Shown one piece after another: positions 42,785 to 42,961 of a stretch of 64,000 nt of DNA. This stretch comes from Gemmatimonadota bacterium (GTDB lineage Bacteria > JBHIER01 > G020348925): positions 3,859,688 to 3,923,687 of the forward strand of contig CP070758.1 of the NCBI GenBank assembly GCA_020348925.1, in the 5' to 3' direction. The stretch's first letter is position 1. Each line of letters opens with the position of its first letter. A program made the translations under genes and the position numbers. The notes beneath the pieces were generated by a model. The model worked only from the letters and a program-made list of their open reading frames with translations, had not been told where the DNA came from and ran no database searches.

Positions 42785-42961
42785 CTACGTGCTCCAAAAC
42801 ACTGCACCGGCAACAACTGCGGCAGCAACAGCAATACCGGCAACGGTAGCAGCTGCAGCATACACTGCGACAAGAACCCAAGCGATCCAGGTGCACACAG
42901 CTGCCGGCCTATCATCCTTACTTCCCAAAGGAAGGATAAGGGGCGTCTCATATTCATTCAC
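42785..42961 (-). CDS. putative RiPP precursor peptide, 58 aa: MNEYETPLILPLGSKDDRPAAVCTWIAWVLVAVYAAAATVAGIAVAAAVVAGAVFWST
   Basis: Strong RBS AAAGGAGG 9 nt before GTG 42961, TAG at 42785-42787, YxxPxI leader motif, uncharged core, located next to RRE and radical SAM genes. Confidence 0.85.
   Translation of the reverse strand: MNEYETPLILPLGSKDDRPAAVCTWIAWVLVAVYAAAATVAGIAVAAAVVAGAVFWST

Follow-up and report, generated by a model that had tools for sequence, protein, structure and literature searches.

A Conserved 58-Residue Peptide Gene, Probably Encoding the Precursor of an Undescribed Radical SAM-Associated Peptide Family, in a Gemmatimonadota Bacterium

In a 64,000-nucleotide stretch of the genome of a Gemmatimonadota bacterium (assembly GCA_020348925.1, contig CP070758.1, positions 3,859,688 to 3,923,687; hereafter the window), an open reading frame (ORF) of 58 amino acids is found on the minus strand at 42785..42961 (from 42961 down to 42785). 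It lies on the same strand as, and directly after, the genes for two radical S-adenosylmethionine (SAM) enzymes and two PqqD domains, the latter being recognition elements (RREs) for peptides that are made on ribosomes and modified after translation (RiPPs). We propose, with a probability of about 0.78, that this ORF encodes the precursor of a RiPP from an undescribed radical SAM cluster family. Judged from its sequence, the peptide is most likely very hydrophobic and enzyme-modified; all of the modification chemistry discussed below is inferred. The proposal is built on the conservation of the peptide, on its position beside the modification enzymes and on the recurrence of the same arrangement in Clostridium felsineum and Collinsella aerofaciens. 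No description of this peptide family was found in the open-access papers searched.

The Peptide Gene and Its Conservation

The peptide ORF is a real, conserved gene. It starts with a GTG codon at 42961 and ends with a TAG codon at 42787-42785, and a Shine-Dalgarno site (GGAGGTGAT; 42975-42967, minus strand), read from the sequence, is located 5 nt upstream of the GTG. A first-pass annotation, made from the DNA letters without database searches, had described a 58-residue ORF with a GTG start and a strong ribosome-binding site. Its translation is identical to that obtained here (MNEYETPLILPLGSKDDRPAAVCTWIAWVLVAVYAAAATVAGIAVAAAVVAGAVFWST), the upstream GGAGGTGAT bears out the ribosome-binding site, and the strand is newly supplied. 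The 40 uncharged residues that it had reported after R18 were confirmed by counting, as no D, E, K, R or H occurs in residues 19-58, and the single Cys (C23) and the aromatic residues W25, W28, Y34, F55 and W56 are all as it had stated. The repeat with a 10-residue period is also present, as AAATVAG (36-42) and AAAVVAG (46-52), but in two copies only. Uncharged runs of at least 38 residues were found in 41 of the 27,387 stop-to-stop frames of 50-80 amino acids in the same genome. Such a run is thus uncommon yet not unique, and composition alone is no proof of a gene. The peptide gene is single-copy in the 5.04 Mb genome.

Six further homologues of 57-58 amino acids, all metagenomic and with a common start Met, were found in 5.8 billion protein clusters. 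Their identity to the peptide varied from 50 to 90% in local BLASTP and from 66 to 90% in the alignment, and a profile search recovered these seven peptides again and no others. Given that six conserved homologues have the same length and the same start, the ORF is a gene. Contig pieces from 4 sequencing runs were >99% identical to the window, with the peptide gene unchanged.

It could be argued that the ORF is a chance intergenic frame or shadows an opposite-strand gene, given that it is short, that it starts with GTG and that Ala-rich frames stay open on both strands here, where an ORF of 132 amino acids on the plus strand and an ORF of 98 amino acids in another frame of the minus strand overlap the peptide. 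This explanation is, however, hardly credible. The six homologues differ from the peptide by conservative I/V/L exchanges and keep its length and start, the gene is preceded by a Shine-Dalgarno site, and RefSeq annotates equivalent ORFs in two cultured bacteria, while neither of the overlapping frames has any Pfam match. An Rfam scan of the peptide gene region returned no family at threshold. The peptide itself has 0 Pfam and 0 NCBIfam matches, and an ESM Atlas search with it gave a best score of 0.77 and no lead.

Alignment of the seven sequences separates three zones. The mean pairwise identity is 0.77 in the N-terminal zone (residues 1-9), where 5 of the 9 columns are invariant (M, Y4, E5, P7, and I9); 0.45 in a linker (residues 10-20) with none of its 11 columns invariant; and 0.90 in residues 21-58, where 29 of the 38 columns are invariant and the substitutions are of the I/V/L type. 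Cys23 is invariant in 7/7 peptides of this lineage. We propose that residues 1-20, with the motif Y4-E5-x-P7-x-I9, form the leader and that residues 21-58 (AVCTW...FWST) form the core. Lasso peptide leaders are described in excerpts of PMC10368454 as carrying YxxPxL at positions -17 to -12, and with Y4 taken as -17 the core would begin at A21, where the columns become invariant after the linker. Seven distinct ORFs opening with M.{0,3}YE[ST]P were obtained among the six-frame ORFs of 25-115 amino acids in the 5 Mb genome, and this peptide is the only hydrophobic one among them.

The Gene Cluster and Its Relatives in Clostridium and Collinsella

The gene row on the minus strand consists of, in order, an AraC-type regulator gene, radical SAM enzyme 1 (349 amino acids; 46066..47115), a stand-alone GNAT-like protein (233 amino acids; 45368..46069), radical SAM enzyme 2 (484 amino acids; 43947..45401), a fusion of a PqqD (RRE) domain with a GNAT fold (299 amino acids; 43038..43937) and the peptide. 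The row is tightly packed, with genes overlapping or 9 nt apart, and the peptide gene is the last. Pfam analysis of the cluster proteins identified two Radical_SAM domains (E 5.9e-22 and 2.8e-23) and two PqqD domains (E 1.2e-10, in the 299-residue protein, and 1e-7). The gaps of the gene row were scanned and contained no other candidate precursor ORF.

In plasmid records, the two loci found both share the order PqqD protein, radical SAM enzyme, small peptide (2/2). On p330 of C. felsineum (locus L012), a PqqD family protein is followed by a radical SAM enzyme, a 51-residue "hypothetical protein" and an ABC (ATP-binding cassette) exporter. The 51-residue peptide opens with MDYESPMIQSLG and continues with a hydrophilic linker and then VVWQYAYVWGAVVAVAAAVVVVIEPA; it contains a W/Y cluster and an Ala/Val tail, and no Cys. 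The ABC exporter of the window is 26% identical to the exporter after this peptide. On the opposite strand of the same locus (L012:3780-8719), an M16 PreP-like peptidase (966 amino acids), an ABC-2 type membrane protein and a DUF1648 protein are encoded, and the peptidase is a candidate leader peptidase without counterpart in the window cluster.

In C. aerofaciens (locus L013), the order is PqqD family protein, radical SAM enzyme and small ORF, and an ABC exporter, a DUF3784-like protein and a DUF1648 protein are found near the cluster. The DUF3784-like protein (126 amino acids) scores 24.5 bits against a cut-off of 28.1, and its BLASTP match to the DUF3784 protein of the window is not significant (E 0.094). 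The 60-residue form of the small ORF opens with MYETPEV and continues with VVVNFAAVVDNVVAAVYDAVVAAYAFWY; it is rich in Ala, Val and aromatic residues and has no Cys. RefSeq places the start of this ORF (L013:9036-9218; NZ_OY725717.1) at an internal Met (9063; 51 amino acids) rather than at that of the in-frame 60-residue form. The RefSeq start is probably too short a choice, as the 60-residue form carries the family motif.

The PqqD proteins of both plasmid clusters are fused to a GNAT-like domain, their radical SAM enzymes are without SPASM cysteines, and their peptides, of 51-60 amino acids, open with (M)(D)YE(T/S)P. The three lineages, which belong to different phyla, thus have in common a peptide whose N-terminus carries YE(T/S)Px(I/V) and whose core is rich in Ala/Val and contains aromatic residues, the same upstream pair of a PqqD-GNAT-like protein and a SPASM-less radical SAM enzyme, and, close by, an ABC exporter. 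The first-pass annotation had read the ORF as a precursor composed of a YxxP leader and an Ala/Val-rich aromatic core. This reading is strengthened by the radical SAM enzymes and PqqD/RRE domains encoded beside the peptide and by the same arrangement in C. felsineum and Collinsella, two distant species in which the motif recurs as YE(T/S)P in a small ORF after a homologous radical SAM gene and in whose peptides the core composition also recurs. As judged from these sequences, no part of the peptide is conserved more widely than its N-terminal motif of the YxxP type.

Such conservation is also what would be expected if the chemistry took place at the N-terminal Tyr-Glu, as in the cofactors pyrroloquinoline quinone (PQQ) and mycofactocin, with the hydrophobic tail serving only to carry the peptide or anchor it in the membrane. 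None of the 7 peptides departs from Y4 and E5, and Y-E-(T/S)-P is kept in three phyla, which exceeds the Y, P and L that are required in lasso leaders according to excerpts of PMC10368454. PqqD is, moreover, the PQQ chaperone family, and weak similarity to PqqE and the mycofactocin maturase was found with NCBIfam. The scores of the latter two are, however, far from their cut-offs (PqqE, 78.9 vs. 381; MftC, 95.4 vs. 265), the row is without other cofactor-pathway genes, and an exporter and bacteriocin-type membrane proteins are conserved alongside the peptide. Within the lineage it is the hydrophobic part that is most conserved (0.90), and this part is rich in Ala, Val and aromatic residues in the distant relatives as well. 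We therefore regard a cofactor-type pathway as improbable.

The Radical SAM Enzymes

Enzyme 1, which has a CX3CX2C motif, also contains a CxC immediately ahead of GGE and a twitch-like hairpin in which auxiliary-cluster cysteines are missing. It is 44% identical to the C. felsineum enzyme (E 8e-103), 41% to the Collinsella enzyme and 40% to the natural fusion protein P0144 described below. A SPASM Pfam match was found in 0/3 proteins of this type, and the four aligned enzyme 1 orthologues have no conserved Cys after the radical SAM core. The CxC before GGE is present in 4/4 orthologues and missing in the two paralogues. SkfB has a hairpin that can be aligned with the twitch-like one of enzyme 1, but the aligned SkfB cysteine, an auxiliary-cluster ligand, is replaced by a Tyr in enzyme 1. 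Enzyme 1 is, on the evidence of these alignments, a radical SAM type conserved across the family.

Enzyme 2 also contains a CX3CX2C motif and is the only one of the two with the full SPASM motif of seven Cys (C265-x12-G-x4-C283, C338-x2-C-x5-C-x2-C350, and C365), which is followed by a C-terminal PqqD (RRE) domain at residues 418-478. Its nearest solved structures by sequence are those of CteB (5wgg, E 1.6e-10) and SkfB. A counterpart of enzyme 2 is missing from both plasmid clusters, whose peptides hold no Cys. Given that enzyme 2 and Cys23 are both present here and both absent there, a single thioether at Cys23 would be the likeliest added step, at about even odds.

A second locus with radical SAM and PqqD genes (L011, C1:948695-951940; flanks C1:947378-951600) is present in the same genome but beyond the window. 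It encodes a 457-residue ORF, a 442-residue ORF that by eye has the look of a B12-binding radical SAM enzyme, a PqqD protein of 120 residues and a 367-residue enzyme 1 paralogue in which two twitch-type cysteines are retained. Its gaps were checked and contained no YE(T/S)P ORF or small hydrophobic ORF.

The PqqD-GNAT-like Proteins

The C-terminal 190 residues of the 299-residue protein are paralogous to the 233-residue protein (32% identity), for which no Pfam or NCBIfam match was found. A Foldseek search with an AlphaFold2 model of the 299-residue protein (predicted local distance difference test score, 62) returned the GNAT acetyltransferases SpeG, PaiA and RimL at E ~1e-7, and the ESM Atlas's own model independently gave TM-scores of 0.64-0.72 (by query) to GNAT clusters. 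According to these models, the C-terminal domain of the 299-residue protein and the 233-residue protein have a GNAT fold. GNAT enzymes carry a pyrophosphate-binding signature, Q/R-x-x-G-x-G/A, between beta4 and alpha3. The sequence [QR]xxGx[GAS] was found at the beta4-alpha3 position in 0/60 family members (and elsewhere in four), and 0/60 had a Pfam acetyltransferase match. With the coenzyme A (CoA)-binding signature lost, the GNAT-like domains are more likely holders of the peptide or of an enzyme than acyl transferases.

A profile of the 299-residue protein retrieved 402 representative proteins at E <= 1e-3, 46 of them at E <= 1e-30, from among 1.84 billion. Most of the 402 are 270-300 amino acids long and match end to end. 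Where a source annotation is given, it is only "PqqD family protein", and the sources include metagenome-assembled genomes (MAGs) labelled Lokiarchaeota and Spirochaetales. One member, P0144 (634 amino acids; from a metagenome or MAG), naturally unites a radical SAM enzyme, a PqqD domain and a GNAT-like domain in one chain, with PqqD between the other two. Its radical SAM part is SPASM-less and shares 40% identity with enzyme 1, against 25% with enzyme 2. This fusion with an enzyme 1-like part indicates that enzyme 1 functions as a unit with the PqqD-GNAT-like protein. A complex prediction with RRE residues 1-110 and the peptide gave a score of 0.28 against a mark of 0.32.

Arguments Against an Enzyme-Modified Precursor

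A number of observations weigh against the interpretation of the peptide as an enzyme-modified precursor. In many RiPP families the pattern is the opposite of a near-invariant core next to a variable linker. Such a core would also fit a helix under packing constraints, and its length and aromatic ends are as for a single membrane-spanning helix. The ABC exporter of the window is without a C39 peptidase domain, and no leader peptidase was identified in the cluster by the Pfam scan of its proteins. Both radical SAM enzymes score far under every curated NCBIfam cut-off (126.7 bits vs. 500 at best), so that sequence yields no chemistry. The association between the Cys and SPASM is a comparison of one lineage with two. 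RNA runs were not among the sequencing runs listed as carrying the region. Finally, the co-location of the metagenomic peptide and PqqD-GNAT-like genes is deduced from equal contig sizes, the longest contig being 7647 bases for both P0006 (peptide) and P0010 (PqqD-GNAT-like) and 1365 bases for both P0005 (peptide) and P0011 (PqqD-GNAT-like).

Taken at face value, the helix-like core could mean that the peptide is an unmodified single-pass membrane protein or a leaderless-type bacteriocin and that the radical SAM enzymes and RREs act on something else. The 40 uncharged residues with aromatics at both ends do resemble a transmembrane helix that has packing motifs of small residues, a cluster without peptidase would suit such a protein, and unmodified leaderless bacteriocins come with bacterial PH-domain (bPH) proteins and ABC exporters in excerpts of PMC8657885. 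It should be noted, however, that RREs and radical SAM enzymes need a peptide substrate and that the cluster gaps hold no other candidate ORF. A similar peptide directly follows a homologous radical SAM gene at 2/2 distant loci, the N-terminal motif agrees with the RRE-recognition pattern of lasso leaders as given in excerpts of PMC10368454, and the peptide occurs nowhere else in the genome. We thus consider an unmodified product very unlikely. An unmodified transmembrane protein found away from such clusters, which the first-pass annotation had listed as a contrary finding, was not encountered in the searches made.

Proposed Modification Pathway

For the enzyme-modified precursor that we favor, the following pathway is proposed. 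Residues 1-20 would serve as the leader, in which the strand Y-E-T-P-x-I would be bound by PqqD/RRE by analogy with lasso leaders. The RRE-GNAT-like protein would present the uncharged core (residues 21-58) to enzyme 1, which, with its SAM cluster only, would abstract a hydrogen and modify Ala/Val or aromatic residues. Our first choice for this chemistry, tentative and at somewhat less than even odds, is L-to-D epimerization. It is favored by the parallel with proteusin epimerases and by Ala/Val-rich cores that need no Cys; in excerpts of PMC8326336, proteusin epimerases have a single cluster, with an RRE at the C-terminus, and epimerases make use of a cysteine of their own. Our second choice, which is more doubtful, is a C-C or C-O cross-link at the Trp/Tyr cluster, and other chemistry takes up the rest.

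In this lineage only, enzyme 2, with its own RRE, would link the invariant Cys23 to another residue, and the chances that enzyme 2 forms a thioether at Cys23 appear evenly balanced. The GNAT-like domains would hold the greasy core or dock the enzyme rather than acylate, and N-terminal capping by them seems unlikely. The product would be membrane-active and would be exported by the ABC transporter, and the bPH, DUF3784 and DUF3108 proteins may serve export or self-protection. An ABC exporter recurs at all three loci, and DUF3784 and DUF1648 small membrane proteins also recur. The analogy for the bPH protein comes from enterocin DD14, for whose export the PH-domain proteins DdE and DdF are needed according to excerpts of PMC8657885.

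In a more far-reaching form of this pathway, enzyme 1 and its RRE-GNAT-like partner would constitute a new epimerase family outside the proteusin leader system, and its products would be D/L-mixed channels of the gramicidin or polytheonamide kind, with a Cys23 staple in the present case. We consider this unlikely to hold in full. The rise of a beta-helix is ~0.76 Å per residue, and a 38-residue beta-helix is estimated to span ~29 Å.

Other Genes of the Cluster and Distribution

The AraC-type regulator at the head of the row (47402..47803, minus strand) is recognized by its helix-turn-helix domain (Pfam HTH_18, E 3.9e-20), and its position suggests a role in regulating the cluster. Past the peptide gene, 29 nt after its stop codon, is a strong stem-loop (42711..42756, minus strand) with a G+C-rich stem of ~14 bp followed by a short U run. 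The 160-nt intergenic RNA that contains it has a folding energy of -57.2 kcal/mol (z = -2.65). A simple terminator scan omitted this stem-loop because its loop is too large; it is possibly an attenuating terminator or a stabilizing hairpin.

The following genes, all on the minus strand, form the putative export/immunity part of the cluster. The first encodes a bPH membrane protein of 180 amino acids with a YdbS-like layout (42088..42630; Pfam bPH_5, E 3.6e-7), whose N-terminal part is hydrophobic, with transmembrane helices judged by eye. It is followed by a DUF3108 protein of 262 amino acids (41339..42127; Pfam E 8e-7), a small DUF3784 membrane protein of 126 amino acids (40972..41352; Pfam E 2.6e-9), which is a possible immunity or export accessory protein, and a second DUF3108 protein of 249 amino acids (40095..40844), whose Pfam match (E 9.7e-5) is below the gathering score. 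By eye, the two DUF3108 proteins have no obvious signal peptide, and a sequence search for solved relatives was empty for both. The ABC exporter (581 amino acids; 37929..39674) combines a fused membrane domain and ATPase (Pfam ABC_membrane and ABC_tran).

The G+C content of the cluster (37929-47803) is 46.2%, compared to 50.6% for the window, with 42.7% for the ABC exporter gene and 43.1% for one DUF3108 gene. This hints at acquisition from elsewhere. Genome-contig searches with the 299-residue protein and with the peptide alignment returned no relative, nor did metagenome-contig searches with the peptide alignment and with the protein alignment. Plasmid searches with the two plasmid-borne PqqD proteins returned only themselves. 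In 61 genomes searched with the 299-residue protein and 401 genomes searched with the family alignment, the matches outside the bacterium's own genome were PqqD-only. A search for the PqqD-GNAT-like gene was negative in the family's sole other genome, which is 87% complete, and gave no full-length match in 400 others. The sequencing runs carrying the region are 8 DNA sediment metagenomes from 3 studies. This patchy occurrence, the low G+C content and the sediment DNA fit a sporadically distributed accessory cluster.

Elsewhere in the window, a divergent row on the plus strand (48524-54851) encodes, by eye, a PadR-type regulator, an outer-membrane factor, a membrane fusion protein and an RND pump of 1040 amino acids. 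On the minus strand at 55849-60765, an ORF of 1638 amino acids is broken by masked bases (read as X), and its C-terminal tail presumably resembles a type IX secretion sorting domain.

Implications

If our interpretation is correct, the peptide represents a new RiPP family whose precursors are nearly pure Ala/Val plus aromatics. Such a family would be unusual in using a radical SAM enzyme without auxiliary clusters together with an RRE fused to a GNAT fold that lacks the CoA site. The family of the accessory protein is sizeable, with its 402 representatives annotated merely as "PqqD family protein". Given that equivalent clusters are present in the cultured C. felsineum DSM 6424 and C. aerofaciens, both the chemistry and the activity of the product are directly testable. 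Should the product be a membrane peptide with mixed D/L residues or cross-links, it would broaden the known ways of making channel-forming peptides, and it could be an antagonism factor in Collinsella, a common human gut bacterium. Should enzyme 1 indeed be an epimerase for channel peptides, channel formers would be widespread, occurring in sediment bacteria, Clostridium, archaeal MAGs and gut Collinsella.

Comparison with Known Systems

The peptide cluster appears to work like an RRE-guided radical SAM RiPP pathway, yet it is a member of no curated class. Two assignments, considered as the families are generally defined, were rejected. Five of the seven peptides end in the C-terminal Thr of daptides, but no aminotransferase, oxidoreductase or methyltransferase family was matched in the cluster, and for a triceptide or darobactin-type family no NCBIfam model came near its cut-off.

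With lasso peptides, the cluster shares the leader motif Y-x-x-P-x-(L/I) and its spacing, with Ile in place of Leu (Y4-E-T-P7-L-I9), and a PqqD-family domain encoded beside the peptide, like the B1/PqqD-like RRE of lasso systems. It differs in that most members have a residue other than Thr, Ile or Val at position -2 and in that the NCBIfam model of the lasso PqqD scores 20 bits against a cut-off of 70. Membership was rejected. No B2 protease or C cyclase family was among the matches listed for 10 cluster proteins (Pfam, and NCBIfam as the best 25 families for each of three cluster proteins), and there is no acidic residue after D17, so that an Asp/Glu ring acceptor at core positions 7-9 is lacking.

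Sactipeptide and ranthipeptide enzymes (CteB, SkfB, and AlbA) resemble enzyme 2 in the combination of CX3CX2C, full SPASM and RRE, and the peptide has one invariant core Cys. SkfA receives a single thioether. The peptide, however, has one Cys only, and the RRE of enzyme 2 is C-terminal rather than N-terminal. The NCBIfam scores are 92 vs. a cut-off of 625 for StsB, 59.6 vs. 850 for AlbA and 64.4 vs. 340 for PapB. The core enzyme of the family, enzyme 1, is without an auxiliary cluster, and its substrates in the two relatives are without Cys. Sactipeptide-type membership is conceivable for enzyme 2 only.

Epipeptides (YydF/EpeX, modified by YydG/EpeE) provide another comparison. EpeE has two [4Fe-4S] clusters, uses an enzyme cysteine as hydrogen donor and acts on Val/Ile of a membrane-active peptide, as described in excerpts of PMC8326336. 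The family-specific CxC near the SAM-binding GGE of enzyme 1 may be likened to this enzyme by description, but enzyme 1 is without auxiliary-cluster cysteines, and the leader, core and accessory proteins are different.

In Elp3, a radical SAM domain is fused to a GNAT acetyltransferase domain that binds acetyl-CoA, and the substrate is tRNA. A radical SAM enzyme and a GNAT fold are likewise combined here, in one polypeptide in P0144 or in neighboring genes in the window. In contrast to Elp3, the CoA signature is found in 0/60 members, no Elp3 or acetyltransferase Pfam match exists, and in P0144 an RRE is placed between the two domains.

A parallel in substrate and enzyme architecture is seen with proteusins (PoyA/PoyD), which likewise combine a long, uncharged core rich in Ala, Val and Gly with a single-cluster radical SAM enzyme that is coupled to an RRE. 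The RRE of P0144 lies C-terminal to the radical SAM part, as it does in the proteusin epimerases of PMC8326336 (in excerpts), a likeness of architecture. Assignment to the proteusins themselves was rejected, as an NHLP/Nif11 leader was not found (0 Pfam and 0 NCBIfam matches; leader of ~20 residues). Instead of that large leader, the peptide has a YE(T/S)P leader of ~20 residues, its cluster has no B12 methyltransferase or other proteusin tailoring genes, and its RRE is fused to a GNAT-like domain. By analogy with the polytheonamide type, a membrane-active product of the cluster is plausible.

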